From: Escherichia coli
Lineage (GTDB): Bacteria > Pseudomonadota > Gammaproteobacteria > Enterobacterales > Enterobacteriaceae
Reading direction: 5' to 3' (one strand)
Assembly (NCBI RefSeq): GCF_046105845.1
Contig: NZ_CP151004.1
DNA length: 64,000 nt
Shown piece after piece: positions 12,249 to 28,727 of this stretch; the stretch's first letter is position 1, and every line of letters begins with the position of its first letter. Made by a program: the position numbers and the translations under genes. Below the pieces are notes generated by a model that saw only the letters and a program-made list of their open reading frames with translations, was not told the origin of the DNA and ran no database searches.

Positions 12249-13615
12249 GTGCGGAGAAATTGCCGGAGGGGTGGGTTGAGTGTGAATTATCCGAACTCGG
12301 TAACATTGTTACAGGGAAAACTCCCAGTACCAAGGAGCCTTCCAATTTTGGAGGCAGCATTCCTTTCATTAAACCAGGCGATCTTGATCTCGGTGGCTAT
12401 ATCATGAATACCGCCGATACTCTGACGGAGAAAGGGTTATCTCTTGTCCCCACTCTTCCTGCCAATTCAGTCGTTGTGACGTGTATTGGAAATTTAGGAA
12501 AAGTTGGAATTACCGCTAAAAAATCAGCATCTAATCAACAAATAAATGCATTGATCCCGTCAGAAAAGCTAAATGTAAAATTTGTTTATTACCAAATTTT
12601 AACATTAAAACCATGGTTAGAGTCTCAATCAGCAGCTACTACAATTGCGATTGTGAACAAGAGCAAATTTTCTCAGGCACCATTTAAATTCCCGTCGCTT
12701 GCCGAACAAAAAATCATCACTGAAAAACTCGATACGCTGCTGGCGCAGGTAGACAGCACCAAAGCACGTCTTGAGCAAATCCCACAAATCCTGAATCGTT
12801 TTCGTCAGGCTATTCTAGCTAATGCTGTGGAAGGAAAATTGACCGACGAATGGCGAGCCGGAAAATGTTATATTACAGAAATCAAAAAAATATCTGATAT
12901 TATTCAGAATGCTCAAGTCGGATTAGTTCGTTCAGCTTCAGATCAAAGCGAAATATGCACTCAAAAAATGAGAACGCCTTATATAAAAATGAATAACATT
13001 CACAATGTTCTCGGAACAAATTTAGAAAAACTCGCTTATGTCAACTGTGATAGCTATGAACTGGAAAAATATAGATTAAAAAATGGAGATTGGCTCTTTA
13101 ATACACGAAATAGTTATGAGTTAGTTGGTAAATCCTGTGTCTGGAATGGATGTAGCAATGCTGTATATAATAATAATATATTAAGAGTTAGACTAAAAGA
13201 AAACTACAATTCTGTTTTTTTAGATTATTGGTTTCACTCGTTCTATGGAGTGAGCATGCTTAATAGTATTAAATCCGCAACAACAAATGTTGCTGCGATA
13301 TATCAGAAAGAACTCTTAAGTAAAAGTGTTCCATTCCCCCCCCTTCCCGAACAAGCCGAGATTGTTCGCCGCGTCGAACAACTCTTCGCCTACGCCGACA
13401 CCATAGAAAAACAGGTCAACAACGCCTTAGCCCGCGTTAACAACCTGACGCAATCCATCCTGGCAAAAGCGTTCCGTGGTGAACTCACCGCCCAGTGGCG
13501 GGCCGAAAACCCGGATTTAATCAGCGGAGAAAACAGCGCCGCCGCGTTGCTGGAAAAAATCAAAGCTGAACGCGCAGCCAGCGGGGGTAAAAAAGCCTCG
13601 CGTAAAAAATCCTGA
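12245..13615 (+). CDS. hsdS: Type I restriction-modification specificity subunit HsdS (456 aa) with divergent AT-rich target-recognition domains
   Basis: ATGA start/stop overlap with hsdM. The conserved central (LAEQKIITEKLDTLLAQVDSTKARLEQIPQIL) and C-terminal (LPEQAEIVRRVEQLFAYADTIEKQVNNALARVNNLTQSILAKAFRGELTAQWR) regions frame two variable segments of visibly lower GC content. Confidence 0.9.
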   Translation: MSAEKLPEGWVECELSELGNIVTGKTPSTKEPSNFGGSIPFIKPGDLDLGGYIMNTADTLTEKGLSLVPTLPANSVVVTCIGNLGKVGITAKKSASNQQINALIPSEKLNVKFVYYQILTLKPWLESQSAATTIAIVNKSKFSQAPFKFPSLAEQKIITEKLDTLLAQVDSTKARLEQIPQILNRFRQAILANAVEGKLTDEWRAGKCYITEIKKISDIIQNAQVGLVRSASDQSEICTQKMRTPYIKMNNIHNVLGTNLEKLAYVNCDSYELEKYRLKNGDWLFNTRNSYELVGKSCVWNGCSNAVYNNNILRVRLKENYNSVFLDYWFHSFYGVSMLNSIKSATTNVAAIYQKELLSKSVPFPPLPEQAEIVRRVEQLFAYADTIEKQVNNALARVNNLTQSILAKAFRGELTAQWRAENPDLISGENSAAALLEKIKAERAASGGKKASRKKS

Positions 13616-13627
13616 TCATTATTTTCT

Positions 13628-13655
13628 GGCGCACCTTTCCGGTGCGCTTTTTATT
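13628..13655 (+). terminator. Rho-independent terminator after hsdS
   Basis: Hairpin GGCGCACC-TTTCC-GGTGCGC followed by TTTTTATT. Confidence 0.6.
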
Positions 13656-13749
13656 ATTTTACGCCAATCATAACTCACGCAAATATATTTAAATCATTCC
13701 AGAAATTGCCTATTTTATTCTATTTTTAGCTGGACTTTCCCTGTATTTA

Positions 13750-13765
13750 CTGATGATATATCCAG
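13750..13765 (+). promoter_or_regulatory. Putative LexA box (SOS operator) in the symE promoter
   Basis: CTGATGATATATCCAG against the consensus CTGT-N8-ACAG (2 mismatches), about 90 bp upstream of the symE start. symE is a known SOS-induced gene. Confidence 0.4.
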
Positions 13766-13771
13766 GTATTT

Positions 13772-13848
13772 AGCGCGGTGCGGATGTGCGCCAACACACC
13801 CGCACCGCTCATCACAATCACTATTCCAGGAGAATAGCAGTTATGACT
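13772..13848 (-). ncRNA. symR: Probable SymR antisense sRNA overlapping the symE 5' UTR, RBS and start codon (coordinates approximate)
   Basis: Placed from established knowledge of the symE/SymR arrangement (a ~77-nt cis-antisense RNA covering the symE translation initiation region). The inverted repeat GCGGTGCGG...CCGCACCGC at 13776..13809 lies within it. Exact ends are not determinable from sequence alone. Confidence 0.35.
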
Positions 13849-14184
13849 GACACGCATTTTATTGCACAACCGTTCGAAGCAGAAGTCTCCCCGGCAAATA
13901 ACCGTCAATTAACCGTGAGTTATGCGAGCCGCTACCCGGATTACAGCCGTATTCCCGCCATCACCCTGAAAGGTCAGTGGCTGGAAGCCGCCGGTTTTGC
14001 CACCGGCACGGCGGTAGATGTCAAAGTGATGGAAGGCTGTATTGTCCTCACCGCCCAACCCCCCGCCGCTGAAGAGAGCGAACTGATGCAGTCGCTGCGC
14101 CAGGTGTGCAAACTGTCGGCGCGTAAACAAAAGCAGGTGCAGGCGTTTATTGGAGTGATTGCCGGTAAACAGAAAGTCGCGTAA
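13843..14184 (+). CDS. symE: SOS-induced toxin-like protein SymE (113 aa; AbrB/SpoVT-fold endoribonuclease-like)
   Basis: [52 protein letters not shown]..., with AGGAG RBS upstream of the ATG at 13843. The ORF track start at 13786 is an upstream in-frame extension. Confidence 0.85.
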
Positions 14185-14345
14185 CAGCGTTTACTCCCGG
14201 TTAACCACCGGGAGCCTTCCACTGACTCAATAGAAACTTTCCCCCTCAGTAAATATTTACCTGCCTGATTGTGCAGTAAAAATCTATTGTTTCAGTACGT
14301 TGCGAAAGCGATAATAGAGGCTTAGCAATGAGGAAGGCACATCTT

Positions 14346-15725
14346 ATGGAATCAATTCAAGCCTGGATTGAAAAATTTATTGAGCAAGCACAGCAACAAA
14401 GTTCGCAATCCACTAAAGATTATCCAACGTCTTACCGTAACCTGCGAGTAAAAGTGAGTTTCGGTTATGGCAATTTTACATCTATTCCCTGGTTTGCATT
14501 TCTTGGAGAAGGTCAGGAAGTTTCTAACGGTATATATCCCGTTATTCTCTATTATAAAGATTTTGATGAGTTGGTTTTGGCTTATGGTATAAGTGACACG
14601 AATAAACCACATGCACAATGGCACTTTTCTTCTGACATACCTAAAACAATCGCAGAGTATTTCCAGGCAACTTCAGGTGTATATCCTAAAAAATACGGAC
14701 AGTCCTATTACGCCTGTTCCCAAAAAGTCTCACAGGGTCTTGATTATACCCGGCTTGCCTCCATGCTGGACAACATAATCAACGACTATAAATTAATATT
14801 TAATTCTGGCAAGAGTGTTATTCCACCTATGTCAAAAACTGAATCATACTGTCTGGAAGATGCGTTAAATGATTTGTTTATCCCTGAAACCACAATAGAG
14901 ACGATACTCAAACGATTAACCATCAAAAAAAATATTATCCTCCAGGGGCCGCCCGGCGTTGGAAAAACCTTTGTTGCACGCCGTCTGGCTTACTTGCTGA
15001 CAGGAGAAAAGGCTCCGCAACGCGTCAATATGGTTCAGTTCCATCAATCTTATAGCTATGAGGATTTTATACAGGGCTATCGTCCGAATGGTGTCGGCTT
15101 CCGACGTAAAGACGGTATATTTTACAATTTTTGTCAGCAAGCTAAAGAGCAGCCAGAGAAAAAGTATGTTTTTATTATAGATGAAATTAATCGTGCCAAT
15201 CTCAGTAAAGTATTTGGCGAAGTGATGATGTTAATGGAACATGATAAACGAGGTGAAAACTGGTCTGTTCCCTTAACCTACTCCGAAAACGATGAAGAAC
15301 GATTCTATGTCCCGGAGAATGTTTATATTATCGGTTTAATGAATACTGCCGATCGCTCTCTGGCCGTTGTTGATTATGCCCTGCGCAGACGATTTTCTTT
15401 CATAGATATTGAGCCAGGTTTTGATACACCACAGTTCCGGAATTTTTTACTGAATAAAAAAGCAGAACCTTCATTTGTTGAGTCTTTATGCCAAAAAATG
15501 AACGAGTTAAACCAGGAAATCAGCAAAGAGGCCACTATCCTTGGGAAAGGATTCCGCATTGGGCATAGTTACTTCTGCTGTGGGTTGGAAGATGGCACCT
15601 CTCCGGATACGCAATGGCTTAATGAAATTGTGATGACGGATATCGCCCCTTTACTCGAAGAATATTTCTTTGATGACCCCTATAAACAACAGAAATGGAC
15701 CAACAAATTATTAGGGGACTCATAG
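14346..15725 (+). CDS. mcrB: 5-methylcytosine-specific restriction enzyme McrB (GTPase / AAA+ DNA-binding subunit), 459 aa
   Basis: MESIQAWIEKFIEQAQQQSSQSTKDYPTSYRNLRVK..., with GPPGVGKT Walker A and a DEIN Walker B-like motif. AT-rich composition. Confidence 0.93.
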   Translation: MESIQAWIEKFIEQAQQQSSQSTKDYPTSYRNLRVKVSFGYGNFTSIPWFAFLGEGQEVSNGIYPVILYYKDFDELVLAYGISDTNKPHAQWHFSSDIPKTIAEYFQATSGVYPKKYGQSYYACSQKVSQGLDYTRLASMLDNIINDYKLIFNSGKSVIPPMSKTESYCLEDALNDLFIPETTIETILKRLTIKKNIILQGPPGVGKTFVARRLAYLLTGEKAPQRVNMVQFHQSYSYEDFIQGYRPNGVGFRRKDGIFYNFCQQAKEQPEKKYVFIIDEINRANLSKVFGEVMMLMEHDKRGENWSVPLTYSENDEERFYVPENVYIIGLMNTADRSLAVVDYALRRRFSFIDIEPGFDTPQFRNFLLNKKAEPSFVESLCQKMNELNQEISKEATILGKGFRIGHSYFCCGLEDGTSPDTQWLNEIVMTDIAPLLEEYFFDDPYKQQKWTNKLLGDS

Positions 15726-16771
15726 TGGAACAGCCCGTGATACCTGTCCGTAATATCTATTACATGCTTACCTATGCATGGGGTTATTTACAGGACATTA
15801 AGCAGGCCGACCTTGAAGCCATACCCGGTAACAATCTTCTTGATATCCTGGGGTATGTATTAAATAAAGGGGTTTTACAGCTTTCACGCCGAGGGCTTGA
15901 GCTTGATTACAATCCTAATACCGAGATCATTCCTGGCATCAAAGGGCGAATAGAGTTTGCTAAAACAATACGCGGCTTCCATCTTAATCATGGGAAAACC
16001 GTCAGTACTTTTGATATGCTTAATGAAGACACGCTGGCTAACCGAATTATAAAAAGCACATTAGCCATATTAATTAAGCATGAAAAGTTAAATTCAACTA
16101 TCAGAGATGAAGCTCGTTCACTTTATAGAAAATTACCGGGCATTAGCACTCTTCATTTAACTCCGCAGCATTTCAGCTATCTGAACGGCGGAAAAAATAC
16201 GCGTTATTATAAATTCGTTATCAGTGTCTGCAAATTCATCGTCAATAATTCTATTCCAGGTCAAAACAAAGGACACTACCGTTTCTATGATTTTGAAAGA
16301 AACGAAAAAGAGATGTCATTACTTTATCAAAATTTTCTTTTTGAATTTTGCCGTCGTGAATTACCATCTGTAAATACAACTCGCCCACATTTAAAATGGG
16401 ATGCATCAAGCATATCGGATCAATCACTTAGCTTGTTACCTCGAATGGAAACTGACATCACCATTAACTCATCAGGGAAAATACTTATCGTTGATGCCAA
16501 ATACTATAAAAGCATTTTTTCACGACGAATGGGTACAGAAAAGTTTCATTCTCAAAATCTATATCAACTGATGAGTTACTTATGGTCGTTAAAGCCTGAA
16601 AATGGCGAAAAAACAGGGGGGTTATTAATATACCCACACGTAGACACCTCAGTGAAACATCGTTATAAAATTAATGGCTTCGATATTGGCTTGTGTACCG
16701 TCAATTTAGGTCAGGAATGGCCGTGTATACATCAAGAATTACTCGACATTTTCGGTGAATATCTCAAATAA
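15725..16771 (+). CDS. mcrC: 5-methylcytosine-specific restriction enzyme McrC (nuclease subunit), 348 aa, GTG start overlapping the mcrB stop by 1 nt
   Basis: Reading from the GTG at 15725 gives (M)EQPVIPVRNIYYMLTYAWGYLQDIKQ...; a PD-(D/E)XK-type region (ILIVDAKYYK) lies near the C-terminus. The ORF track start (15695) is an upstream in-frame extension. Confidence 0.9.
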   Translation: MEQPVIPVRNIYYMLTYAWGYLQDIKQADLEAIPGNNLLDILGYVLNKGVLQLSRRGLELDYNPNTEIIPGIKGRIEFAKTIRGFHLNHGKTVSTFDMLNEDTLANRIIKSTLAILIKHEKLNSTIRDEARSLYRKLPGISTLHLTPQHFSYLNGGKNTRYYKFVISVCKFIVNNSIPGQNKGHYRFYDFERNEKEMSLLYQNFLFEFCRRELPSVNTTRPHLKWDASSISDQSLSLLPRMETDITINSSGKILIVDAKYYKSIFSRRMGTEKFHSQNLYQLMSYLWSLKPENGEKTGGLLIYPHVDTSVKHRYKINGFDIGLCTVNLGQEWPCIHQELLDIFGEYLK

Positions 16772-16793
16772 GCGGTAAGTTTTATAGAAAATA

Positions 16794-16820
16794 CCGCTCC
16801 CGACACCACATCGGGAGCGG
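16794..16820. terminator. Stem-loop between the convergent mcrC and large helicase genes (likely bidirectional terminator)
   Basis: CCGCTCCCGA-CACCACA-TCGGGAGCGG hairpin located between the mcrC stop (16771) and the helicase stop (16828). Confidence 0.5.
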
Positions 16821-16827
16821 CTCATCA

Positions 16828-19800
16828 TCAGGAGGCGATCACCTCCACCAGCACATCCGTTGCCCAACTCTCTTCGCTGTTGGCGACATTCCCTTCCTTG
16901 CAGGCCTGAGCCATTTTGACTAACTGGAAAGAAACGTCATCGCGGAAATCAAAGTAATGCCATTGCGATGCAAAGTTGATGCGCCAGTAGCCCATCCCCT
17001 GATCGAAGCGGATCTTCAATACCTGACCATCATCAAAAGTCACCGTCAGTTTACGATGGTGAGGGATATCGCGCGGCGAGTCGAACACCGTCAGTTCTAC
17101 CGGCCTGCCCAGCGCAGCAGCAAACCACTGATCAGCGAAATCCTGAAAATCCGCTATGCTCATCCAGTCATGGAAAGGCCGGTTACCGGGGCGATCTTTA
17201 TCTTTAAATAGCGTATCCAGCGTCACTTCAGCGCCATCGGTCAGCTTTGTTTTTAGCGGTCTCAAAATTGATCCCAACAACGCCAGCGCAACCGGGTTTT
17301 GCAGATAGCGATCGGTATAGTGAACGCCGGTAATTCGCGTGTTATTCATCAGTGACTGCGCTTCTTCATGGTCGTTAAACAGCACGTCCCAGAAGCGTTG
17401 CCCAAACTGCGACAGTGGTCCATTCAACTGTTTGTGGATCTGAATGTCTTTGACCCGCTCGACAGCGTTGGCGGCTTTAGCCGGCAGAATAAATTCGTTC
17501 AGCTCTACCGTTTTATAGCCGAGACTACGTACCACCAGTTCGTCATTCAGGTGCCACTCCGGCCCCGGAATCGTTGCCTGCTGGCTACGAGAGGCCAGCG
17601 TCATCACGCGATCGGCAAAGGTGACCTGAGCAACGATCGGTAATTTCAAATCCTGTTCAACATGGCATAGCCGCACACCCAGCGCAGTAAATTGCGATAG
17701 TTCGTGCAACAGGTCCGGGTCATCCACTCCCGCAGGAATAACAAGATCGACCTCGACGTTGTCTTTTAGCCGATAGTTCTGAACCGCCGCGCGGAACTGA
17801 CGTGCGTATAAATCCCACTCATTGGGCGCGCCGGTCATCCACAGGGTGAGCTTTTCAGCGCCTTCGTTAATCGCCCGGCGAATCGTATCGCCAATGGCGC
17901 CAGGGCAGTAGCGGGCATCCGGCAGCGAGAATGTCTCTTCATCCGGTAAACCGATGTAATACGTGAAGTCATCGCCAAGCCAGGCCAGCGCCGCTTTGCG
18001 ATCCAGCAAATCGTGATCGTGGCGAGTCTGGGAATCAAGCAGGCATTCACTACATGCAGTCTCACAATGGCGGCAGCCTAACTGTTTCACCATTCCCTGC
18101 AATATAGCTTCAATGTGTACCGGTGCGCTGGAGGCAAAACCTGCACCACCGCTGATCACATCATAAAGCTGTACGGCTAATACCGATTGCCCATCCTCCA
18201 GTCTGACCGGACGTACAGAATAGCCGAGTTCTGCGGCGGAGATACCCAGAACGCCCGCCAGCGCCTGACGCAGAGCAACCGCCAGAGTCATGGCAACAAT
18301 CCGCCCCTCCTCTGTGTTATCTGGCAGATACTCGCCGTTTTGCGGTTTGCGCAGAACCATTTCAAAGACATCGGTGCGCGCCAGTGCGCCCAGGGTGACG
18401 TTCTTCATGAGTGCCGTCGAACCGGGGCAAATCAGACGATGATTCTGGCTATCGCGGTCCGCTTTACCCGGACGCGGTGGATAGTGAGCTTCCATGCTTT
18501 TCGGCGCATCATTTTCATTCAGCATCGACTCAGCACGGCCACAGCTCAGACACAATGCATAACCGTGTCCACCTTCCCCCAAACTTTGCTGGAAAACATG
18601 CCCATCAGCCCCAGAAGCCATATAACCCATTAGCGGGTTAGGCAACGGTACGGGCTCTGCTTTAACAAAGACCCACGCGGGGACAACCGGGACGAATTTC
18701 ATGGTTTCAATATTGTTCGTTACCGGAGCGTGTGCATCGGTGACAAACCCGGCAGGCTGCAGCACCTGACGGCGATTATCCATGATTATTTTTTCGCCGC
18801 AGGCGCTATTGGAGCAAAAGAGCATCCCGGAACTGCTCATCCCCTCTTCATAGCCAATGGTCCCGCATTTGTGACAGCGCCAGGCGCAATCCAGACGCTG
18901 GGCTTCATTGGTATCAGCATTAATGTTGTGCCAGTGCAGTGAGACACCGGCAGAGCGGAAGACACGGCCATCAAGAATGATCTCTGCTCCCGGTGCATAT
19001 TCACGAATGGCAACACCGAGGTTACGGGAAGGTAATCCTTTATAACGGGAGACGTTATCTTCACGGTCCTTTTTATCACGACTTTTTTGCGATTTTTCGC
19101 GGATATAATCTTCCATTGTGAAGTTATCAAACGTCACTACATCTGTCGGGAAACCGTATCCCGGCAAGAAGGTTCTGGCAGCTAGATCGCGCAGCAGATA
19201 CTCGCCACAGTGCCGTTTCTTCTCCAGCTCTATGCGCTTACGATAAGGCGTTTGCGGCTGCGACTCACGCTCCTGTGTCACGAGATCGCGATAAACGGAG
19301 AGCCACCGCTGCTGCAGGAAGGTGATCGCGTTGATTGTTTTATCCCGCAGATATTCGGCTCTTGCACCATGCAACGCCGTACCTTTCACCAGCCGTTCCA
19401 GCGCCGTGTCGATATCAAGAACAGGGCGTTCCAGCCAGACTTTGAAGCGTTCGCATTTTGACTGCCCGTCATCTTCACCGAAAAACCAGAGGCTATCGAG
19501 GCTGGTTTTCTCTTTATCGGTTTCGCCAATAACGTTACATAAAAAGTCGGACAGTAATAATGCATTGACGTGACGTTGCACCAGTCGGGCGGAGTTCATC
19601 GCGACCATGGGTGCCGGGATCATGGTTTCAAATGGCCAGAGCGGGTTGGCAAAAACCTGCTGGTCGTGTGGGTTACCTTTACATAGGGTGTAAGAGATCG
19701 CACGTGATTCTTTACTACGCCCGGCTCGCCCGGCGCGCTGTAAATAGTTGGCCGGATGTGGCGGTACGTTGTTCATTACCACCGCAGTAATGCCCCCGAT

Positions 19801-22800
19801 ATCAACCCCCATTTCCATGGTGGTGGAACAGTTGAGAACATTTAGTTGCCCATTCTTGAACATCTTTTCATAGCTTTGCAGACGTTCTGACGACTGCTGG
19901 GCAGAGTGCTCGGCAGTGCGATAGTAGAAACCGCCTTCCACGACACGATCGTTGATGTCTGTCCAGACGTTTTCCGACCGCAATTGTGCGATCAGCGGAT
20001 CATTGCTGACCCAGTCGCGTGCTTTTGCCAGACCCTCTGCGTAGTCTTCCTGTGAACGATCCAGCTTCCAGATTTCCGGCATGGTGACTTTCTGCGCGAC
20101 AAAAGTGTCATATTGCGCCTGGGTAAGATGCTCGAACGAAATATGGGTAGGCAGATAAGGGGTTAAGCCTTTAAAAGCCGTATCCAGGATTTTATTGGTT
20201 ACCGGGCAAATCCAGGCATCCGTGATTAATGAAAAAGTCATATGCTCTTTCGGTAAATAAAAACGGTTGCCATCGGGTTTCAGTACTGCAAGCGGTCCGG
20301 TAAGTTGGGCCCATGCTTCTTTCAGCCATGTATTGATAATATCAATAGTCGCCGTATTGACGGTTTTGAATCCAGCCCCCAGCATCAGTAACTTCGCTAA
20401 ACGATGGGATACGTTGCCATTACGAATTTGAGGCCAGCGTCTGTTCTGATTATCTTCAGGATCTTTTGATTCCGGGTTACGGACGAATTTTGATGAAAAA
20501 CGGCTACCGATCCAGTTTTTCAGCTCATCATCCAGCTGTGTGAAGTTGCTCTCACGAACGTAATGATCCAGCGTAACTTTGAGAAAATCGCGCCAGTCAT
20601 CCAGCGTTAATCCTTTTTCCTGCCAGTGCAGAGGGATCTTATGTATTTTCTCCAGCCCCAGGTAACCAACCTGAACCAGCCCTTGTGTTTCCAGGCTGTT
20701 AGTCCGTTTAGGGCGACGCATGAATTCCCGGAATAACAACATTTCCGAAAGCTTTAGAGGCCCGCCGTTTTCATTAAACACTTCAGGCTTAAGATAATGG
20801 TTATATTGCAGAACCGGGCCACGGATATCGGCTCTCTCTTTAAGCTCGTTAACCATTTCTGTCCAGGTTCGGGATACCAGAGTAATTGCAGCTTTTCCAC
20901 CGATTGCAGACTGGTAAGCCTGTTCAAGCTGCTCGGCCTGCGCTTCTGATAATTTCGCTTGATCCGGCAATCCCCAGCTTCGATATTCTTCTGCCTGCTC
21001 ACGGGCTTGCTTTACCCTGGTCGCTAATTTTTCCAGATCGGCATTAGCGTTCGGCGCCGTGGGCGTTTGCGTTCGTTGATGCCAGCTCAGAATTTCGACT
21101 ACGCTTCCGCGTAAGCGACTACGTTCTGCTTCTTGCTGCATACGCACCGCCATCCGGGCTGTCCCTTGTCGACTATCCGTAAAGGTAATGAGTCGACGTC
21201 CTCGCCCTGGCAACGAATCTGGTCCGACGCCCTCTTTGCCTTCATCACTGGCAAAGTCCTGACAATACTCAAGAACGGTAGGCACGATGTTAGTAACGTA
21301 AAATGGCCCACCTAATAATGCACGCCGAAAGGGTTGTTTTCCGCTCATGCCTCGGTAGCCACAGCCGCTGGCGCTACAAACCTGTTCAATATCATTAATA
21401 ATCAGCGGAATGCTGTCATTATTAATAACGCCAATACGGCGCGTCTGACGGTCGAGGCGTTGTAGGGTATAGCCTGTCTCGCTGGTCTCTCCTGCGGCAA
21501 TAATCAACGGAGGCTGGAAACTGTTCTCTTTTTCGACTTTTTCCTCTGTAGTGTCATGTTCAACAGGTACTTCATCCTGCAAGGAGAACTCATCGCCACC
21601 TTTATTTTCCCATTGGACAAGTTTGCCCTTTTTGTCCTGCGCCAGAAGATGAGGCTCATTACAATCATTACAGAACGCCACTTCGTATACAGGGCTTCCA
21701 CAGTCACAATTTTGTCGCTGGTTCACATACACATAGCCAAAGGGCCAGCCTTTTTCGAGCGGTGTACCGTGCTTTAATCTGCAATCTTTATCAACACAAG
21801 CCCATATTCCCTGGGTATTACGCTGGAAGATATGCGCCCTGACTTTAAGAAATGCGGGATCCTTTGCATTAGGTTGAGTCCCTGAACAGACATCGATCCA
21901 ACGCAGTACTTCCTGCTGGCTGTAATGCTGTTTTGTCAGCACGTTTAACCGCTCTGTTATCTCATCCAGCTTCATCGGATTGGGCTGTTTGACCAACATC
22001 TCACGTATGTAACGCGCTTCGGGGGAATGCGTAAGCGCATAAAAGCGATCAGGACTTATACCTTTAATTTTATTATCATTTTTATCTCTTAGATCCAGAT
22101 CGGGTATTTGCTCTATTTCGTCTAACGGAAGAGAAACGTTTTTGGATGGTTCCAGTTCAGGAATCACCCGACTTCCGTCCAGAACATCGATGCGCTCCTT
22201 CGGGATACCGGATAATTCAGAGAGAAATTTTTTCAGCTGCTTTTCGACGTCGCTGCCGGCAATGGTCGCAGAGGTCGCTACAAAGCGCACATCATCTGGC
22301 GTCACGCCAAACGCTGTCATCACACGACGCAGCTGGAGCGCCAGTTCAGCGGCCTGCGACCCGACATAGGTATGCGCTTCATCCAGTACAATCCAGCGTA
22401 GTGATTTTTGTGCTTTGGATTGCTGGATAATCGGGGCGTCGACCTGGCGAACCATCATATATTCCAGCATCGTGCCGTTGGTCACCAGAATCGGGGCAGG
22501 TTCTTCACGCATTTTTTCGCGCGAGAGCACCTCATTCGGCCTTTTTGCCTGTTCGCTTTTTACCGAAGCGTGTAGGTTTTCGGTGTTACCGTTGTAAAGG
22601 CAGTAGCGGATCCCGGTACCAAAACCACGCGTCCAGGCATCCAGACGCTCGCGCTGTGAATTAATCAGGGCGTTCAATGGATAGAGAAAAAGGGCTCGGA
22701 CACCGACCAACGGATTGTTGCCATTTTCATGCAGTTCCCGGTAAAGATCTTCCAGCACCGGTACCATAAAACATTCCGTTTTACCTGAACCCGTACCACT

Positions 22801-23172
22801 GGTTACCACCACTGAATGTTTCTTTTCCAGCAAAGCTTTCCAACTGGCTAACTGGTGTGTAAAAGGCTTCCAGTCAGCACCAAATCGGTACCGGCCATTA
22901 CTCTGATCATCCAGTGAATCAACCACTGCTTTGCTCAACAATGCGTTGCCTTCCGTCAGACTGCGCATCGTGTGGTTTGACTCCTTCCAGCCAAACATTT
23001 GCTGGAATACCGGAGAAGCAAGGAATGAGCCCGGTTTCCCACAATCAGCCCCCATTTGTTGCGCGAGATGTTCACGCAGCTGCGGGTTGGTTACGCCCAT
23101 GATACTGAGCGTTGCTTCAGTTGAACGAGACAACGATTGTTCAATAAGTGACGAAAAATAGCGTGTAGTCAT
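16828..23172 (-). CDS. druE: Giant (2114 aa) SF2 DEAH-box helicase with MrfA-type Zn-binding (DUF1998/MZB-like) Cys clusters; candidate Druantia type III DruE-like defense helicase
   Basis: Walker [10 protein letters not shown] (~22780..22800), DEAH box VLDEAHTY (~22367..22384), SAT motif, motif [10 protein letters not shown] (~19718..19741), Cys4 clusters CHKCG...CSNSACG and [11 protein letters not shown] (~18040..18880). Forms an operon with the 1112-aa gene upstream (12-bp gap). The DruE name is inference from size, architecture and locus, not a verified hit. Confidence 0.75.
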
Positions 23173-23184
23173 CCTTATTCCTTT

Positions 23185-26100
23185 TTATTTTTTAGCAACA
23201 TAACGCAACAGGCTGCACTGAAAGATGGTCTTAAACCAGCGGGAATCGAAGTCCCTGACTTGCCTCAGGAAAAATACGGCACCGGGTTTACGGTCAAATA
23301 CAGCTTCAAAAGAAGTATTTCCGCTTGCCACAGCTGCAGCGAAGACGGGTAACCAGGCCACGGAATAGCGGTGATTTGCGTCAGGATTAATACCAATCAC
23401 TGGCTTTTTTTGTGACATCATCCATTTATACAGACGCTTGCAGCCATATTCAGGCCAGCGAGCTTCACTGTGCTCACGTAAAAGCTCCTGATACCACCCG
23501 TGGACACAAGATTCAGGAATAGACGGAGGGAGATATCCGTTACTTAACCATTTCTCAATTTCATCGGCATATGTCGGGAACACGAGCCCCAGCCGTTGAA
23601 ACATATTAGTAACCAGTAATTTCTGGGTTTCCTCCGGTGCACCTTTTTGGCTCAGGAACAATTTGAAACGCTCAGATGCAGCTTTGATCTCAAAGATGGG
23701 GAAAAACTCCCATAGAATAGGGAACTCATTCTCAATACGACTCAGGTACTCTGCTGACATTTCAAATTTGAAGAGCGACATTGCCAATGCCTGCGGATGC
23801 TGCACCAGTGCACGCCATACTTCAAAGGTTGCCAGTGGTAAATACCCGAATTGATCGTACAGGCTACGCATAAATTGCCAGCCGGAATGGGCAGGATCGT
23901 TAGCCATCTGTCCGAGAACCAGTGTGATGGTATTAACTTCTGCCTGTGGATTAAAAAGCTGGGTCGCTTTCTGCAATGAGCGGATGTTGCTTTCTTCTAC
24001 CGGTAACGAAGATTCGCCACGAATGAAGCAGGGACGAAAAGCCATCTCTTCACCCGGTTTAGGGACAACCAACCACGGTCCATTTTTGTTAACGATTGAG
24101 CTCAACTCATATTCACCGACAGGCACTCCCTCGCTCATTCTAGATGCTAAGGGAATGGATTTCCTCTCGGGTTCACTTAACAGCATGATAACGGGGGAAG
24201 GAATCTGCCCAGCACGATGGTTCACTGACTGGCTGAGTAATAGTTCTTTTTCATAATCATAGCGCAGGCTGTATTTATAGCGACGAATTTGCCAGGCCAT
24301 GACCACACCTGCCCCCGTAATACGCATCTCAACAACCTGATCAATACCTGCCTCAAGTGAAATCAGGTTCTCAATATGTTCGCGAAGACTATAGAGATTC
24401 AATTCAACAGGACGATCGCTCAACGCCGTATAACACCATTCATGCCATGCCTGTAATCCACTAACGGAGCGCAAATACAACTGCAATGTATATTTTGTCG
24501 GCTCACCATTTCTGGAGAACAGAAACGCTCTGGAACCCAGCAGATCATGCAGCGTAATGTTTTTATCCAGAGGACGTCCGTTTACATCAAGAGCGAGACA
24601 GCCTTTAGCGGGAAAAGGTAACTCAATGTCGATGGGGTCAGCCGCCAAATTAGGCAGAACTTGTAATGTAATAAATGCCGGAGGTACCCCTTCCGCTTTA
24701 AGTTGTATCTCTGTTCGCCCCTCAGTACGCTTACGTGTAGCCTCCAATGTTTTATCTTTAAGTTTTGCTACACAAGGATGCTGTGTGGTGATTAAGATAG
24801 TGCCTTCATTTGCGTGCATTCCACCTTTTATCTCAATACTGAAATCAGCAGGCAAGATACCGATTTTGCGACGCAAGAGCGTTTCATTGTTACTATTACG
24901 GATAGAAAGATATTGAGCCCCCAGCATCTCTTGTATATGACATTGCTCAATTGAAATTCCGCTCAGGTAACGCGTTACATCAATGCTTTGAATATCCGGT
25001 AGTGTAGAAATGACTTTTGGTACACCAATAAATGTTTCATCTGGATGACAAACCCAGCTTGCACGCTTTCCATTTAGAGCAAACCTTCCGATGCTGATTT
25101 GTTCTCTTCCGGTGCGAATCCGATAAGTTTCATTTGCTGTAACTGTAACGTCCTGACATCCCTTCACAGGTAGTGCTTTTAGTCCTAATACGTTTACTGC
25201 GCTCGATTGGCCATCAAAACCAGCAACATTGCTATTATCCCGAGGGAGTACAATCAGAACATCGCTGCTTCGCACACTGCAAGAAGCCTGTCCCTGTAAC
25301 AGCCATTGATCTGCATCAACGATGAAGGTTAACGGCACCTCACCAATGGCAATTTCACTGTCATCAAGTTTAATGCTCCCAACAATCATCCCTCCAGCAC
25401 GAGCCACTAATGACAAACCTGCCGATGGATTTTGCCTGACAAATCTCACTTCGCTTTTACGTAATCGAACTGTTGCCTGTCTGTTTTCCAGGGAAGCATA
25501 GGCTGGCCCAAGGCCAGAGACTTCCTCACCATCTTCACAAATGGCAAGTTCAAAGCGCGTAGTTGACGGCTCGCTTGTTACAGGAAAGGAAACTTCGTCC
25601 GGAAGAGATACTATCACCCTAAGCTCATCTGGATGCTTTTCTGACCAATAGAATTGGCAACGCGTACTCTTATTTTTTTGTAGTCGAGGCTTAGCCTCTA
25701 CAGAGGCTGCGCATAGCAGTCCATTCAAAAAATGCGTTCCTGTTTCATCATCTAACGGTATTGGAAACTCGCTTCGCCAGGTAGGGTGAACCTTCTCAAG
25801 CTGTTGTACTGGTTCTTTGTGATTTATTAGGTTGTGAGTAAGTACTAAGGAATTGAGGTTATCAGCCATATGACTGATAAGTTCTACAGAGGTATCTTCG
25901 CTAAAAACAGTTGGCAGCGCTGATTTTTCTATGACAGCTCTTGCCAGCGAAAGGGCAGAAAAACCTGACTGCTTTGCTTGCTCATATTGTCCAAGGATCC
26001 TGGAGAAAACAGCCAGAAAGCGACTGTCTGATTCTTTGAGTAGCCGGAAAGGTAAACCACCTTCACTGAATAATGTTCCGAGAAAATTGCGTCGTTCAGA

Positions 26101-26523
26101 TTCATAAAATCGAATTGGGCGCAGCCAGTAATCTTCCATCCCTTTCGGTACGATAGTACCAAGCTCTGTGGCGGTGAATGAAATCCCTATTTTTTTATAT
26201 ATAGGGTCCCACGTCCATCCGCATTGCCGTTCATAATCCCTGCGGTACCACTCAGAGCAAAAAAGAACAAAACAGGCAGCAAAGTCCCTATTACATATAT
26301 TAGATTGTGATTGATCGACCGCACGGAGTAGCTGCGTTAATTGGGTATATTCATCATTGGTTGCATGATATTCATAAAGAGGACGGCCATCCGGTTGTCT
26401 CAACCCTCTAAGATTCACAAAGTTACTTAGCCAGGAAGTACATTTTACCCATGAAATGTATTCTGATTGACCCAAAGCAAGCTCCTTAGAGATAAAAGAT
26501 ACAAAAACAAAACCCCACAACAC
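23185..26523 (-). CDS. druH: Large (1096-1112 aa) protein of unknown function encoded immediately upstream of the giant helicase; candidate Druantia type III DruH-like partner
   Basis: Uninterrupted 1112-codon ORF with no recognisable catalytic motifs, co-directional and near-contiguous with the helicase gene. Start is uncertain: GTG at 26523, or TTG at 26475 preceded by a strong AAGGAG SD. An AT-rich promoter region lies upstream (26524..26970). Confidence 0.65.
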   Translation of the reverse strand: MLWGFVFVSFISKELALGQSEYISWVKCTSWLSNFVNLRGLRQPDGRPLYEYHATNDEYTQLTQLLRAVDQSQSNICNRDFAACFVLFCSEWYRRDYERQCGWTWDPIYKKIGISFTATELGTIVPKGMEDYWLRPIRFYESERRNFLGTLFSEGGLPFRLLKESDSRFLAVFSRILGQYEQAKQSGFSALSLARAVIEKSALPTVFSEDTSVELISHMADNLNSLVLTHNLINHKEPVQQLEKVHPTWRSEFPIPLDDETGTHFLNGLLCAASVEAKPRLQKNKSTRCQFYWSEKHPDELRVIVSLPDEVSFPVTSEPSTTRFELAICEDGEEVSGLGPAYASLENRQATVRLRKSEVRFVRQNPSAGLSLVARAGGMIVGSIKLDDSEIAIGEVPLTFIVDADQWLLQGQASCSVRSSDVLIVLPRDNSNVAGFDGQSSAVNVLGLKALPVKGCQDVTVTANETYRIRTGREQISIGRFALNGKRASWVCHPDETFIGVPKVISTLPDIQSIDVTRYLSGISIEQCHIQEMLGAQYLSIRNSNNETLLRRKIGILPADFSIEIKGGMHANEGTILITTQHPCVAKLKDKTLEATRKRTEGRTEIQLKAEGVPPAFITLQVLPNLAADPIDIELPFPAKGCLALDVNGRPLDKNITLHDLLGSRAFLFSRNGEPTKYTLQLYLRSVSGLQAWHEWCYTALSDRPVELNLYSLREHIENLISLEAGIDQVVEMRITGAGVVMAWQIRRYKYSLRYDYEKELLLSQSVNHRAGQIPSPVIMLLSEPERKSIPLASRMSEGVPVGEYELSSIVNKNGPWLVVPKPGEEMAFRPCFIRGESSLPVEESNIRSLQKATQLFNPQAEVNTITLVLGQMANDPAHSGWQFMRSLYDQFGYLPLATFEVWRALVQHPQALAMSLFKFEMSAEYLSRIENEFPILWEFFPIFEIKAASERFKLFLSQKGAPEETQKLLVTNMFQRLGLVFPTYADEIEKWLSNGYLPPSIPESCVHGWYQELLREHSEARWPEYGCKRLYKWMMSQKKPVIGINPDANHRYSVAWLPVFAAAVASGNTSFEAVFDRKPGAVFFLRQVRDFDSRWFKTIFQCSLLRYVAKK

Positions 26524-26973
26524 TTCTAATTTGAAAGAAAACTTTTCAAAATATCGTATAATTAATCAGGCGGCAACAACTAATTTTTCAGGTCGGTACT
26601 ATAAATTAATTTTAGATAAAAATGATATCAACCATCTATTAATCACAACTCATTTATCACCTGGTTTTATAATTTCAAATGAAAATAAATCTCAAACAAT
26701 CAAAAAGTATGCAGTAGCTAACATTTAACTTTCCAGGATATAAAACAATTAGAGAAACTGCACAATAGCGAATAATGAAAGTTGTAAAGTCAGTCAAAAA
26801 ACACAAGCAATCAGTGTGCGTTTTTTGACCGTTATCGACATGAGTTTAAAGAGTTTAGTGAAGAAGATATTCCTGTACACTCCATACCTATTGATGAATT
26901 GTCTCGGGAAAATTTTTATAACTTAATTTAAAAACATAAAAACGTTTTATTATATATAAATCTATACCCCCCC

Positions 26974-27138
26974 TCACTCCACATCCTCCCTGCGTAACCC
27001 AATATCCCTCAACCGCTCATCACTCATCTGCTGTAACACCCGCCGGGCCTGCATTTGCCGCCGCCAACGCCTCACTGCCTGCCAGAGTTGCACAAGTCCA
27101 ATAAACGGTGCTTTAGCTTTGTTTTCGTGAAATTCCAT
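26974..27138 (-). CDS. yjiS: DUF1127-family small protein YjiS (54 aa)
   Basis: Translated by hand: MEFHENKAKAPFIGLVQLWQAVRRWRRQMQARRVLQQMSDERLRDIGLRREDVE, with a GAGGAGG RBS upstream. Below the 60-aa cut-off of the ORF track. Confidence 0.75.
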   Translation of the reverse strand: MEFHENKAKAPFIGLVQLWQAVRRWRRQMQARRVLQQMSDERLRDIGLRREDVE

Positions 27139-27314
27139 CTGCTGCCTCCTCATCTTTCAGAGGCTTCATCATCCGTCTTCTGGCAGTTCACAATACAGAT
27201 GCAAATATTAGTTTTATTTAACATACAGACAGGTTAAAACAGCATCTGCATCCGGTTTTTTAGCCTCATCTGTACCGGTTTTTCTCTCTGTATGGTCCAA
27301 ATAAGGAACACAGC

Positions 27315-28727
27315 ATGACGCGTTATCAACATCTGGCGACTCTACTTGCCGAGCGGATTGAGCAGGGGCTGTATCGTCACGGGGAGAAATTGCCGTCGGT
27401 GCGCAGCTTAAGTCAGGAGCACGGCGTCAGTATCAGCACCGTGCAGCAAGCGTACCAGACGCTGGAGACGATGAAGCTCATCACTCCGCAGCCGCGTTCG
27501 GGTTATTTTGTCGCACAACGTAAAGCCCAGCCGCCAGTGCCGCCGATGACGCGTCCGGTGCAGCGCCCGGTGGAAATAACCCAGTGGGATCAGGTGCTGG
27601 ACATGCTGGAGGCGCATAGCGACAGTTCCATTGTTCCGTTAAGCAAAAGCACGCCGGATGTCGAAACGCCCAGCCTGAAACCGCTCTGGCGGGAGCTAAG
27701 CCGGGTGGTGCAGCATAATCTGCAAACCGTTCTCGGTTATGACTTGTTAGCCGGTCAGCGGGTATTGCGCGAGCAGATTGCCCGCCTGATGCTCGACAGC
27801 GGCTCGGTAGTCACCGCCGATGACATCATCATTACCAGCGGCTGCCATAATTCGATGTCGATGGCGTTAATGGCGGTGTGTAAACCGGGCGATATTGTCG
27901 CGGTCGAATCCCCCTGTTATTACGGTTCGATGCAGATGCTGCGCGGCATGGGCGTGAAAGTGATTGAAATCCCAACCGATCCAGAAACTGGCATCAGCGT
28001 TGAAGCGCTGGAATTGGCGCTGGAACAGTGGCCGATTAAAGGCATCATTCTGGTGCCAAACTGTAATAATCCGCTGGGATTTATTATGCCGGACGCGCGC
28101 AAACGGGCCGTTCTCTCGCTCGCTCAGCGTCATGATATTGTGATTTTTGAAGATGATGTCTACGGCGAACTGGCGACGGAGTATCCGCGCCCGCGGACCA
28201 TTCATTCCTGGGATATCGACGGGCGAGTGCTACTGTGCAGCTCGTTCAGTAAAAGTATTGCACCTGGCCTGCGCGTGGGTTGGGTCGCACCGGGGCGTTA
28301 TCACGATAAACTGATGCATATGAAATACGCCATCAGCAGCTTTAATGTGCCGTCCACGCAAATGGCGGCGGCAACGTTTGTGCTGGAAGGTCACTATCAT
28401 CGCCATATCCGGCGGATGCGGCAGATCTATCAGCGCAATCTGGCACTTTATACCTGCTGGATACGGGAATATTTTCCCTGCGAAATCTGTATTACGCGCC
28501 CGAAAGGCGGATTTTTACTGTGGATAGAATTGCCTGAACAGGTCGATATGGTCTGCGTCGCGCGGCAGCTGTGCCGCATGAAAATCCAGGTGGCGGCAGG
28601 CTCGATTTTCTCGGCTTCCGGCAAATACCGTAATTGTCTGCGCATCAACTGCGCTTTGCCGCTCAGCGAAACCTATCGCGAAGCACTAAAACAAATTGGC
28701 GAGGCCGTGTATCGGGCAATGAAATGA
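27315..28727 (+). CDS. yjiR: MocR-family transcriptional regulator (GntR-type HTH fused to a PLP-dependent aminotransferase-like domain) YjiR, 470 aa
   Basis: N-terminal GntR HTH (LPSVRSLSQEHGVSISTVQQAYQTLE) followed by an aminotransferase class I/II-like domain (SFSKSIAPGLRVGW). Confidence 0.9.
   Translation: MTRYQHLATLLAERIEQGLYRHGEKLPSVRSLSQEHGVSISTVQQAYQTLETMKLITPQPRSGYFVAQRKAQPPVPPMTRPVQRPVEITQWDQVLDMLEAHSDSSIVPLSKSTPDVETPSLKPLWRELSRVVQHNLQTVLGYDLLAGQRVLREQIARLMLDSGSVVTADDIIITSGCHNSMSMALMAVCKPGDIVAVESPCYYGSMQMLRGMGVKVIEIPTDPETGISVEALELALEQWPIKGIILVPNCNNPLGFIMPDARKRAVLSLAQRHDIVIFEDDVYGELATEYPRPRTIHSWDIDGRVLLCSSFSKSIAPGLRVGWVAPGRYHDKLMHMKYAISSFNVPSTQMAAATFVLEGHYHRHIRRMRQIYQRNLALYTCWIREYFPCEICITRPKGGFLLWIELPEQVDMVCVARQLCRMKIQVAAGSIFSASGKYRNCLRINCALPLSETYREALKQIGEAVYRAMK

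Follow-up and report, generated by a model that had tools for sequence, protein, structure and literature searches.

A giant helicase gene in the hsd-mcr region of Escherichia coli encodes a type III Druantia DruE with family-typical inserted domains and a predicted PLD-like tail

Positions 16828 to 23172 on the minus strand of the 64,000-nucleotide stretch of Escherichia coli DNA analyzed here (the window) hold an intact reading frame coding for 2114 aa, and the question raised by this gene is what the large regions outside its helicase motifs represent. The original prediction named the product DruE and described its architecture as unusual, with an ~800-aa insert (including a Cys-rich element and an FTDSRQ motif) splitting the helicase core and a last ~400 residues without assignable motifs, and it proposed that both regions might serve phage sensing or effector functions.

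The identity was borne out by profile searches, as the PADLOC DruE3 model (PDLC00037) matched the product end to end (2696.7 bits; residues 1-2110; model positions 1-2053 of 2055). The PADLOC type I, II and IV DruE models gave partial matches only, and NCBIfam, which is without a DruE model, gave partial helicase matches that were all below cut-offs. The adjoining upstream reading frame matched the PADLOC DruH3 model (PDLC00049; 1829 bits), and its product matched NCBIfam YjiT_fam (1261 bits); the RefSeq ortholog of DruH has 1096 aa, and the real druH start is probably near 26475 rather than 26523. Both genes are co-oriented with a 12-nt gap, without druA-D or druMFG genes. Judged by its sequence, the reading frame is thus assigned as druE, encoding the signature helicase of type III Druantia, here an anti-phage system with two genes (druH-druE):

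16828..23172, minus strand: druE, 2114 aa, SF2 YprA/MrfA-like helicase of type III Druantia (PADLOC DruE3)
23185..26523, minus strand: druH (yjiT family), 12 nt upstream of druE (PADLOC DruH3)

The gene pair belongs to the E. coli hsd-mcr "immigration control region", adjoining mcrBC and hsdRMS; its immediate flanks are mcrC and yjiS/yjiR homologs, the locus neighbours are hsdR/M/S, symE, mcrB and mcrC, and E. coli chromosomal loci match the sequence at 99.3% identity. RefSeq labels druE here merely as 'DEAD/DEAH box helicase'. In K-12, a decayed copy of the locus is annotated as yjiT plus a yjiV pseudogene.

The protein could be aligned with the solved E. coli (EDL933-type) DruE, 9tu7, in one collinear alignment covering residues 5-2089, with a global identity of 36.5% over 2004 aligned residues. 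By region, a profile of residues 296-1200 matched 9tu7 residues 291-1190 in a single stretch (E=1.5e-170), and residues 1200-1713 and 1715-2114 matched with E=2e-66 and E=2.7e-19, respectively. All of the following functionally tested residues of the EDL933-type protein are kept: K131, D264/E265, R668, R673, R819, K822, R891, F892, F1341, P1342, R1383, the four MZB Cys and H1718. The motifs listed in the original prediction were found exactly where it had placed them, i.e., GSGKT at 128, DEAH at 264, SAT at 301, QRAGRAGR at 1145, CVDKDCR at 459, CDCGSP at 489, CNDCNEP at 501 and FTDSRQ at 664, as were three further Cys clusters (1429/1433/1436/1453/1458, 1541/1544 and 1700/1703/1707/1710). Among 33 homologs with 50-98% identity to this DruE, the following Cys residues are (near-)invariant (C459, C464, C489, C491, C501, C504, C599 [32/33], C604, C1433, C1436, C1453, C1458, C1541, C1544, C1582, C1700, C1703, C1707 and C1710); C1429 is not conserved. 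Since these Cys and FTDSRQ (33/33) are (near-)invariant, they are not chance features.

The identity, motifs and extra domains are therefore real and were correctly noticed, and they are already known. The domain architecture is family-typical, collinear with 9tu7, and was described in four preprints of May 2026 (Hu et al., Himpich et al., Loeff et al., Wu et al.); it is thus not unusual for DruE, as had been claimed, and is of low novelty. The N-terminal region and the domains of the helicase core, with approximate boundaries here and below, are:

22858..23172, minus strand: N-terminal region, residues 1-105 (approximate), upstream of the Pfam DEAD match
22243..22857, minus strand: RecA1, residues 106-310, with GSGKT 128 (K131), DEAH 264 and SAT 301
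21076..21252, minus strand: RecA2 first segment, residues ~641-699, motif-IV-like element with FTDSRQ, R668 and R673
19573..19947, minus strand: RecA2 second segment, residues 1076-1200, with EHSAQQ 1088, the motif V region and motif VI (QRAGRAGR 1145)

The N-terminal region bridges domains and closes the toroid in the protein of Hu et al. RecA1 coincides with a Pfam DEAD match (residues 106-310, E=7.7e-23) and is 60% identical to the EDL933-type domain, with K121, D251 and E252 aligned to K131, D264 and E265; mutation of the ATPase residues aligned with K131 and D264/E265 abolishes defence in homologs (Wu et al.). Overall, the SF2 ATPase motifs (Walker A, DEAH, SAT and motif VI) are intact.

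RecA2 is less simple. The Pfam Helicase_C match is confined to residues 1085-1153, corresponding to model positions 41-109 of 110, and the early part of the RecA2 fold must therefore lie elsewhere. The second segment is 58% identical to that of the EDL933-type protein, and it is the only part of residues 296-1200 matched by MrfA, Lhr and DEAD-box proteins; the Lhr matches (5v9x, 7lhl) cover only profile positions 787-849, in the motif V-VI region, and the profile search found nothing matching Lhr or Hel308 in residues 311-1075. The region between the lobes is thus not simply the set of winged-helix and ratchet domains of those helicases, an alternative that the original prediction had named.

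One could suppose that a single contiguous insertion of ~800 aa separates two intact RecA lobes and that FTDSRQ belongs to this inserted part, as originally predicted. The confinement of the Helicase_C match agrees with this supposition, as does the outcome of excising residues 701-1074 in silico, after which the match still began at model position 38, short of FTDSRQ. An AF2 model of residues 296-1200 (12-sequence alignment; mean pLDDT 56.8), in which neither the zinc domain nor RecA2 was resolved, also leaves room for it. However, phmmer alignments of the same spliced construct to RecQ4 and LGP2 begin at RLITF, and the 664-673 element is invariant among the homologs, is kept in 9tu7 and has a weak match, FSDSRQ, in another solved giant helicase (9wae). 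Moreover, R668 and R673 align with EDL933-type R647 and R652, which track the DNA phosphate backbone in the solved E. coli structure (Wu et al.), strand contacts are made by helicase motifs IV and V (Himpich et al.), and Loeff et al. described INS and Stalk domains embedded within RecA2. We consider the single insertion highly improbable and assign FTDSRQ, by alignment, to a conserved motif-IV-like element of RecA2 that would contact the DNA backbone and belongs to the helicase proper, not to an insert of unknown role. The split-RecA2 topology is suggested by alignment, published work and conservation, with one of our own two tests negative.

The large extra modules of the original prediction are real; they are best assigned, however, to two insertions, one (a winged helix plus a double-zinc domain) between RecA1 and RecA2 and the other (a Cap with a nested helical bundle) inside RecA2:

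21868..22242, minus strand: linker plus winged-helix domain, residues ~311-435 (approximate), collinear with 9tu7 residues 291-415
21253..21867, minus strand: double zinc-binding domain (dZBD / ZBM_L / part of INS), residues ~436-640, with eight conserved Cys
20878..21075, minus strand: helical dimerisation domain (DD / PD subdomain / Stalk helix), residues ~700-765, from alignment and AF2 helices
19948..20877, minus strand: duplex-binding 'Cap' domain (DBD), residues ~766-1075, within RecA2, with RRPK 819-822 and wedge R891-F892

A winged-helix (WH) domain is in the domain list of Himpich et al.; Foldseek of this region gave weak winged-helix-type matches only (Fur, Rok; all E > 1). The eight Cys of the double zinc-binding domain (459, 464, 489, 491, 501, 504, 599 and 604) are kept in 32-33 of the 33 homologs, consistent with the two zinc motifs described there (Hu et al., Himpich et al.), and the EDL-type lock loop 505-523 aligns with residues ~522-539. 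The helical bundle, residues 701-761 of which correspond to EDL933-type P680-Q758, is the least conserved block among the homologs; AF2 predicted long helices at 668-702, 713-733 and 736-757 (model mean pLDDT ~57). An E. coli homolog without the dimerisation domain loses dimerisation and defence (Hu et al.), and the Stalk binds DruH in the P. aeruginosa homolog (Loeff et al.). Some dimer-interface residues differ from those of the E. coli homolog, i.e., Y191 is replaced by A202 and R2075 by D2079, with H1023 unaligned. In the Cap, EDL933-type R809, K812, R886 and F887 correspond to R819, K822, R891 and F892, the last invariant in 33/33 homologs, and its function as a strand-separating wedge has been described in homologous DruE (Hu et al.). 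The Cap block was modelled by AF2 with pLDDT 70-90 and had no significant Foldseek PDB match; the poor 296-1200 model as a whole likewise gave no match with E<=0.001 against a PDB library to 2026-04-08, evidently without DruE entries, a null result that weakly supports a Cap domain without an older structural homolog.

It is tempting to regard the inter-lobe region, i.e., the Cys-rich element and ~800 aa around it, as a dedicated module sensing a phage protein or other infection signal. The variability of the helical bundle, the most variable block, could reflect an arms race, and the Stalk contacts DruH, itself a proposed sensor (Loeff et al.) and, in the literature on homologs, a proposed sensor or processor. 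However, every DNA-bound structure shows duplex DNA bound by the zinc domain and the Cap, which also bear the wedge and lock elements (Hu et al., Himpich et al.), and the DNA-contact and wedge residues are kept here (R819, K822, R891 and F892). DNA structure (ssDNA tails or forks) together with DruH accounts for activation, and the 2026 DruE preprints report no phage protein that binds DruE. A dedicated sensor thus appears very unlikely; the published structures assign the inserted domains roles as duplex platform, wedge and lock, and in dimerisation and DruH docking, i.e., DNA handling and assembly.

Downstream of motif VI, the layout is that of YprA/MrfA-like helicases, i.e., the RecA1-RecA2 core is followed by OB, connector and DUF1998 modules, with the OB and connector assigned via the 9tu7 alignment and the published descriptions:

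19138..19572, minus strand: extended/atypical winged-helix domain, residues ~1201-1345, with the GYGFP loop at its end (F1341 wedge, P1342)
18298..19137, minus strand: OB-fold/zinc plus connector region (OBZ), residues ~1346-1625, collinear with 9tu7
17944..18297, minus strand: MZB (DUF1998) zinc domain plus linker, residues ~1626-1743, with C1700/C1703/C1707/C1710 and clamp His1718

Residues F1341 and P1342 correspond to EDL933-type F1327 and P1328, are both invariant in the 33 homologs, and have a function described for the wedge Phe/Pro of the GYGFP loop (Hu et al., Himpich et al.). Two putative zinc sites in the OBZ (C1433/C1436/C1453/C1458, and C1541/C1544/C1582 plus a fourth ligand; Cys invariant in 33/33) agree with the two zinc motifs reported there by Himpich et al. 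Pfam placed MZB/DUF1998 at residues ~1631-1711 (E=3.7e-9); EDL933-type C1681, C1683, C1687, C1690 and H1698 align with C1700, C1703, C1707, C1710 and H1718, and MZB Cys-to-Ala mutants of the homolog lose defence (Himpich et al.).

The C-terminal tail is, as predicted, a separate module beyond DUF1998. Pfam found no family in the last 400 residues and no PLD match in any of 22 homologs, in agreement with the original prediction that this part carries no assignable motif; nevertheless, it is not without a fold, as a PLD-like fold was found in the tail (AF2 model pLDDT 86), predicted to form a tandem PLD-like module:

17488..17943, minus strand: PLD-like domain 1 (PLD1), residues ~1744-1895, with W1786-D1787 and W1873-H1874
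16831..17487, minus strand: PLD-like domain 2 (PLD2), residues ~1896-2114, with the Y1952-x-D1954-R1955-Y1956, H2038-x-R2040 and D2057-Q-G2059 pocket

The HxK(x)4D(x)6G(S/T)xN signature is missing; the corresponding stretch reads H2038-H-R2040-KLTVTFDDG...D2057-Q-G2059, with no Lys at +2 and no conserved Asp at +4 after it, and the module, despite its PLD-like fold, is thus not a canonical HKD member. Among 1057 cluster representatives, it was found only at the C-terminus of proteins of ~2050-2250 aa or in fragments.

An effector role for this tail, as originally suggested, is a fair candidate, but it is contested by experiments on homologs, the 2026 reports disagreeing on whether the tail acts as a nuclease. 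Loeff et al. reported ATP-dependent ssDNA degradation that was abolished by pocket mutation, with P. aeruginosa pocket mutants also losing defence, and Wu et al. found that purified E. coli DruE cuts long DNA. Hu et al. and Himpich et al., on the other hand, found the PLD domains of the EDL933-type protein dispensable for helicase activity and defence, and the canonical HxK(x)4D missing. The module might be catalytically inert and serve structure or regulation instead (as an assembly surface, or by binding DNA or a ligand), in which case Druantia III would unwind and immobilise phage DNA but leave it uncut. A truncated protein, DruE 1-1723, still protects and keeps binding, ATPase and unwinding (Himpich et al.), some type III DruE proteins have no PLD domains, e.g., the 1667-aa DruE of M. 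smegmatis (Hu et al.), and a role of the C-terminal domain in higher-order assembly was reported (Wu et al.); the failure of Pfam to recognise a PLD in the 22 homologs points the same way. Against an inert tail stand the P. aeruginosa pocket mutants, the cutting of long DNA by the E. coli protein, and the invariance of the YxDRY/HxR/DQG pocket across 54 diverse family members (Y1952, D1954, H2038, R2040 and G2059 in 54/54; D2057 in 52/54), which argues for selection on the pocket and against a mere scaffolding role. We regard the inert tail as possible but not as the favored reading, and suggest with moderate confidence, by analogy with the homologs, that the PLD2 pocket is a functional non-canonical site binding or cleaving phosphodiesters.

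A further, rather doubtful, proposal is that the tandem module is a non-canonical (HxR-type) nuclease or phosphodiester-sensing site that is only conditionally required, the need for it perhaps depending on a partner nuclease, e.g., Zorya II ZorE; the hsd-mcr lineage would then rely on its own PLD site. The pocket core is invariant also in lineages where its deletion has no phenotype, additional pocket residues (H1874, K1990 and D2002) are conserved in this lineage, and Zorya II does not adjoin druH-druE within the 64-kb window. If true, such a conditional requirement would reconcile the contradictory 2026 reports. We also considered H1874 (Gly in the EDL933 type) as the cause of the PLD controversy and rejected it; His occupies this position in only 2/54 family-wide sequences, and H1874 is thus a lineage feature and not a family catalytic residue.

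Overall, the best explanation of this gene, to which we assign a probability of roughly 85%, combines its identity as type III DruE, the domain order given above, a mechanism derived from homologs, and a proposed nuclease output of PLD2. The helicase and anti-phage activities at this locus are inferred from the 36.5%-identical E. coli homolog and from the P. aeruginosa homolog, for which 3'->5' DNA helicase activity and anti-phage activity needing both DruH and DruE have been shown (Hu et al., Loeff et al., Himpich et al.). DruE would load where phage DNA exposes single-stranded 3' tails or forks, and the tracking strand would thread a closed tunnel over RecA2 and RecA1, with R668 and R673 contacting the backbone, F1341 wedging into the tracking strand and H1718 clamping it during ATP-driven 3'->5' translocation. 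The zinc domain and Cap would form the duplex entry platform, with F892 as the strand-separating wedge and the zinc-domain loop as a lock, while the helical bundle (~700-765) may serve dimerisation and/or DruH docking. The PLD2 pocket may provide a helicase-coupled nuclease output, the requirement for which would depend on phage and context. The 2026 studies disagree on loading polarity (3' versus 5' overhang), on whether dimerisation activates or inhibits, and on complex formation between DruE and DruH.

As an anti-phage system, Druantia is widespread, but its mechanism was opaque until 2026; the inserted domains would explain how the helicase recognises phage DNA ends or forks yet spares the closed host chromosome. 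The value of the present analysis is a correct annotation of druE in place of its RefSeq label. For the question of whether the PLD-like tail is a nuclease, this divergent E. coli lineage with its fully conserved pocket, together with a naturally null K-12 at the same locus, would be a convenient test system.

Compared with known systems, the tail shares only 6-15% sequence identity with PLD-superfamily proteins (the MITD1 PLD-like domain, Nuc, BfiI, NgoAVII and SauUSI), and the HKD signature of that superfamily is missing from it. The DISARM DrmA/DrmB, Dpd DpdJ and ARMADA helicases belong to the same YprA-like clade and have DUF1998 (Bell et al.), and the PADLOC DpdJ and DrmA models gave partial matches to DruE; these matches, however, cover the RecA lobes only, and those systems have other partner genes and nucleases that are separate or of other folds (Bell et al.). 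B. subtilis MrfA/YprA (6ZNP), the founding YprA-family SF2 helicase, resembles DruE in RecA1 (residues 84-307, E=3.7e-17), RecA2 motifs V-VI and an MZB match, and has a 3'->5' DNA helicase core joined to OB, connector and zinc modules (Hu et al., Loeff et al.). At 751 aa, however, it is without the WH/dZBD insert, the Cap or dimerisation insert and the PLD tail, and ~60% of DruE mass is extra relative to MrfA (Hu et al.).

For P. aeruginosa DruE (Loeff et al.), compared by description only, the described set is the same, i.e., N, RecA1, RecA2 with INS and Stalk, HTH, Gate, OB, DUF1998 and two MITD1-like PLD domains, with a pocket containing D-R-Y and H-x-R. No constant numbering offset fitted the nine pocket residues given by Loeff et al. 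to any of 269 homologs, and that protein thus belongs to another lineage; its D1740 and H1830 may correspond, judged only by spacing, to D1787 and H1874. A 'Pseudomonas type' label for the present lineage was dropped, as the 59%-identical P. aeruginosa DruE (P0036) is not the protein of Loeff et al.

The closest studied protein is the EDL933 / ATCC 8739-type E. coli DruE (2104 aa; cryo-EM structures 9TU7-9TUC; Himpich et al., Hu et al., Wu et al.). It differs in lying on another island, adjoining Zorya II and not in the hsd-mcr region, in its low identity in the insert domains (26-35%), PLD1 (22%) and PLD2 (32%), and in peripheral pocket residues (H1874/G, K1990/L, D2002/A and Q2058/M; here/EDL933). 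On the other hand, it is likewise encoded downstream of druH, is collinear over its full length with an identical order of eleven domains by alignment, and shares the five zinc sites, the helicase motifs, the 664-673 element, the wedge Phe, the clamp His and the PLD2 YxDRY/HxR/DxG pocket.

The druE ORF, which encodes the giant helicase of the two-gene type III Druantia anti-phage system, is intact (window 16828-23172, minus strand, 2114 residues) and matches the PADLOC DruE type III model end to end (2696.7 bits); the co-oriented ORF upstream (23185-26523) matches PADLOC DruH type III (1829 bits). NCBIfam assigns the DruH protein to the YjiT family and holds no DruE model. A scripted search found the motifs where they had been predicted, i.e., GSGKT at residue 128, DEAH at 264, SAT at 301 and QRAGRAGR at 1145, the Cys-rich strings at 459, 489 and 501, FTDSRQ at 664, and three further Cys clusters at 1429-1458, 1541/1544 and 1700-1710. 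Pfam matches comprised DEAD (106-310), Helicase_C (confined to 1085-1153 and beginning at model position 41 of 110) and MZB (DUF1998; about 1631-1711); none fell in the last 400 residues, for which the original prediction had likewise assigned no motif. PF27116.1, present in the precomputed Pfam annotations of every full-length homolog among 120 close homologs, was not reported by our Pfam profile search.

The druE locus is the immigration control region; hsdR, hsdM, hsdS, symE, mcrB and mcrC lie upstream. These plus-strand genes (window 6945-16771; type I restriction-modification in the case of the hsd genes) are all intact and run convergently towards druE; O169:H41, the closest genome, has a frameshift in its mcrB ortholog. 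The mechanical druH ORF begins at a GTG at 26523 (1112 aa), but since the family profiles first align at residue 19-31 and the ortholog in RefSeq has 1096 aa, the true start probably lies near 26475. The position of K-12 rpnD, a pseudogene there, is taken in the window by an Rpn family recombination-promoting nuclease/transposase-like ORF (28971-29774), which directly follows yjiR on the margin of the variable island. A low-GC (37%) gene (35579-37669) codes for a pentapeptide-repeat protein of 696 aa, which matches HetL- and PipB2-type repeat proteins in part and below threshold; near it lies a gene (40223-45463) for an inverse autotransporter adhesin (IatC/intimin family, 1746 aa).

DruE residues 5-2089 align as a single stretch to the 2108-residue "DEAD/DEAH box helicase" of six PDB entries (9TU7-9TUC), as did the separately searched segments 296-1200 (E = 1.5e-170), 1200-1713 (E = 2e-66) and 1715-2114 (E = 2.7e-19). 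The untagged counterpart of the solved protein, the EDL933-type DruE, comes from an E. coli genome in which Zorya II is its neighbour; the protein is 2104 aa long, GSGKT falls at 118 and DEAH at 251, and its numbering is followed in the papers of Hu et al., Wu et al. and Himpich et al. Pairwise alignment gave the following equivalents.

Residue equivalents, EDL933-type DruE to window DruE (encoded on the minus strand, 16828-23172)
R809/K812 to R819/K822
R886/F887 to R891/F892
680-758 to 701-761: PD subdomain
505-523 to about 522-539: lock loop
F1327/P1328 to F1341/P1342
H1698 to H1718
four MZB cysteines to C1700/C1703/C1707/C1710

A second solved giant helicase (9wae and related, a 1970-aa "Helicase") showed a strong match over RecA2 motifs V-VI (E about 1e-14 to 1e-16) together with weak matches at FSDSRQ and in the Cys region; it may be the DruE of another Druantia type.

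FTDSRQ had been regarded as a motif of an insert between the helicase lobes. It is invariant in 33 of 33 homologs, the distant E. coli DruE has kept it too, and R668 and R673 are the equivalents of R647 and R652 of the EDL933 type, which follow the phosphate backbone of the DNA where duplex gives way to single strand (Wu et al.). The tracking strand also touches helicase motifs IV and V (Himpich et al.), and the first 40 model positions are absent from the Helicase_C match. Taken together, these data indicate that the segment around 641-699 would be the first part of RecA2, to which we reassign FTDSRQ. In that case the predicted insertion of about 800 residues is two insertions, one of approximately 330 residues (WH and zinc domain) before 641-699 and one of approximately 375 residues (dimerisation bundle and Cap) after it; large extra modules do split the core, and residue equivalences and the preprints indicate that they flank the first RecA2 segment. 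In-silico tests of this layout gave mixed results: with 701-1074 excised, RecQ4 and LGP2 alignments start at RLITF, but the Pfam Helicase_C match was not extended. The AF2 model of 296-1200 was of too low quality to serve here (pLDDT 56.8), and Foldseek with this model found no match in a library older than the DruE depositions.

The architecture of DruE was described in four preprints in May 2026. Himpich et al. give the layout as RecA1, WH, double zinc-binding domain, duplex-binding domain with a nested helical dimerisation domain, RecA2, extended WH, OB/zinc, MZB and two PLD-like domains, with five zinc motifs (two in the double zinc-binding domain, two in OB/zinc and one in MZB). Hu et al. 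name the inserted parts ZBM_L, Cap domain (without known structural homolog) and protruding PD subdomain; they identify F887, on a loop of the Cap, as the wedge that separates the strands, and show that deletion of the PD subdomain abolishes both dimerisation and defence. In a P. aeruginosa ortholog, Loeff et al. describe INS and Stalk domains embedded within RecA2, the Stalk binding DruH in their complex. Eight cysteines (459, 464, 489, 491, 501, 504, 599 and 604), six of which the original prediction had noticed while missing two, show little or no variation in 33 homologs, and their number suffices for both zinc sites of the first zinc domain. Further on, C1433/C1436/C1453/C1458 and C1541/C1544/C1582, located in the OB/zinc region, are invariant in the same number of homologs, C1429 is not conserved, and C1700/C1703/C1707/C1710 form the MZB zinc site.

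AF2 modeled the C-terminal 400 residues (1715-2114; 22 homologs) as two alpha/beta domains (pLDDT 86.4). The canonical HKD signature is absent from this tail and no Pfam PLD model matches it. Of 1.84 billion cluster representatives, 1057 matched a profile of the tail; in the best 150 of the 1057 matches the tail was always C-terminal in proteins of approx. 2050-2250 aa, or in fragments. Across 52 full-length representatives, the query and the EDL933 type (54 sequences), Y1952, D1954, H2038, R2040 and G2059 of the pocket in PLD2, the second PLD-like domain, are invariant and R1955, Y1956, D2057 and Q2058 nearly so; the conservation of H1874, K1990 and D2002 does not extend beyond the lineage of the query. 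Because the pocket is invariant family-wide, we favor, with moderate confidence, PLD2 as carrying a functional site. According to Loeff et al. and Wu et al., DruE degrades DNA in an ATP-dependent manner and mutants of the pocket or nearby lose defence; Hu et al. and Himpich et al. report that the PLD domains are dispensable.

By homology, DruE would be an ATP-driven 3'->5' DNA helicase that depends on an end or fork where single-stranded DNA is exposed and threads the tracking strand through a closed tunnel, with the inserted domains acting as duplex platform, wedge and lock and the helical bundle serving dimerisation and/or DruH docking. The preprints differ on the physiological trigger (3' vs. 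processed 5' overhangs), on whether the dimer is active or autoinhibited, on whether DruE and DruH form a complex and on whether DruE is a nuclease.

The druE DNA is 99.3% identical to E. coli chromosomal loci and was matched in 652 of 5426 complete genomes, with at least 80% of the gene covered in 237 of these. K-12 carries yjiT (505 aa) and the yjiV pseudogene at the same site. BLAST of window 16001-27400 against K-12 MG1655 4572414-4576855 found these to be the residue of druH-druE, from which two internal segments (window 21950-24966 and 17616-19799) have been deleted; what is left is 95.7-98.1% identical. As a result, this locus is naturally null in K-12. Disrupted druE homologs are common: a 1730-aa N-terminally truncated form without RecA1 represents 1116 member sequences, one genome carries an IS30 insertion in druE, and in a BL21 derivative the gene is annotated "DUF1998 domain-containing protein". 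One EDL933-type ortholog (NZ_CP073976.1) is named "motility-regulating DEAH-box RNA helicase" in RefSeq, which conflicts with the DNA-helicase defence role in the 2026 preprints.

The finding as originally stated is already known: the DruE gene family has been on record since 2018, a prediction of its architecture followed in 2025 and four structure determinations in 2026, and PADLOC recognises the window protein. What it adds concerns the contested role of the PLD tail and annotation (RefSeq "DEAD/DEAH box helicase"; K-12 yjiT/yjiV as a Druantia remnant). E. coli holds two divergent DruE lineages, the hsd-mcr-island type of the window and the EDL933 type, found in about 499 genomes (60-80% nucleotide identity in RecA2), where druE adjoins Zorya II and a second DEAD/DEAH helicase gene; the island of the window is a different one from that of these Zorya-linked copies. 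Compared to the EDL933 type, its nearest solved protein, the window DruE is 36.5% identical globally over 2004 aligned positions, the values by block being about 60% for the RecA lobes, 26-35% for the inserted domains, 22% for PLD1 and 32% for PLD2.
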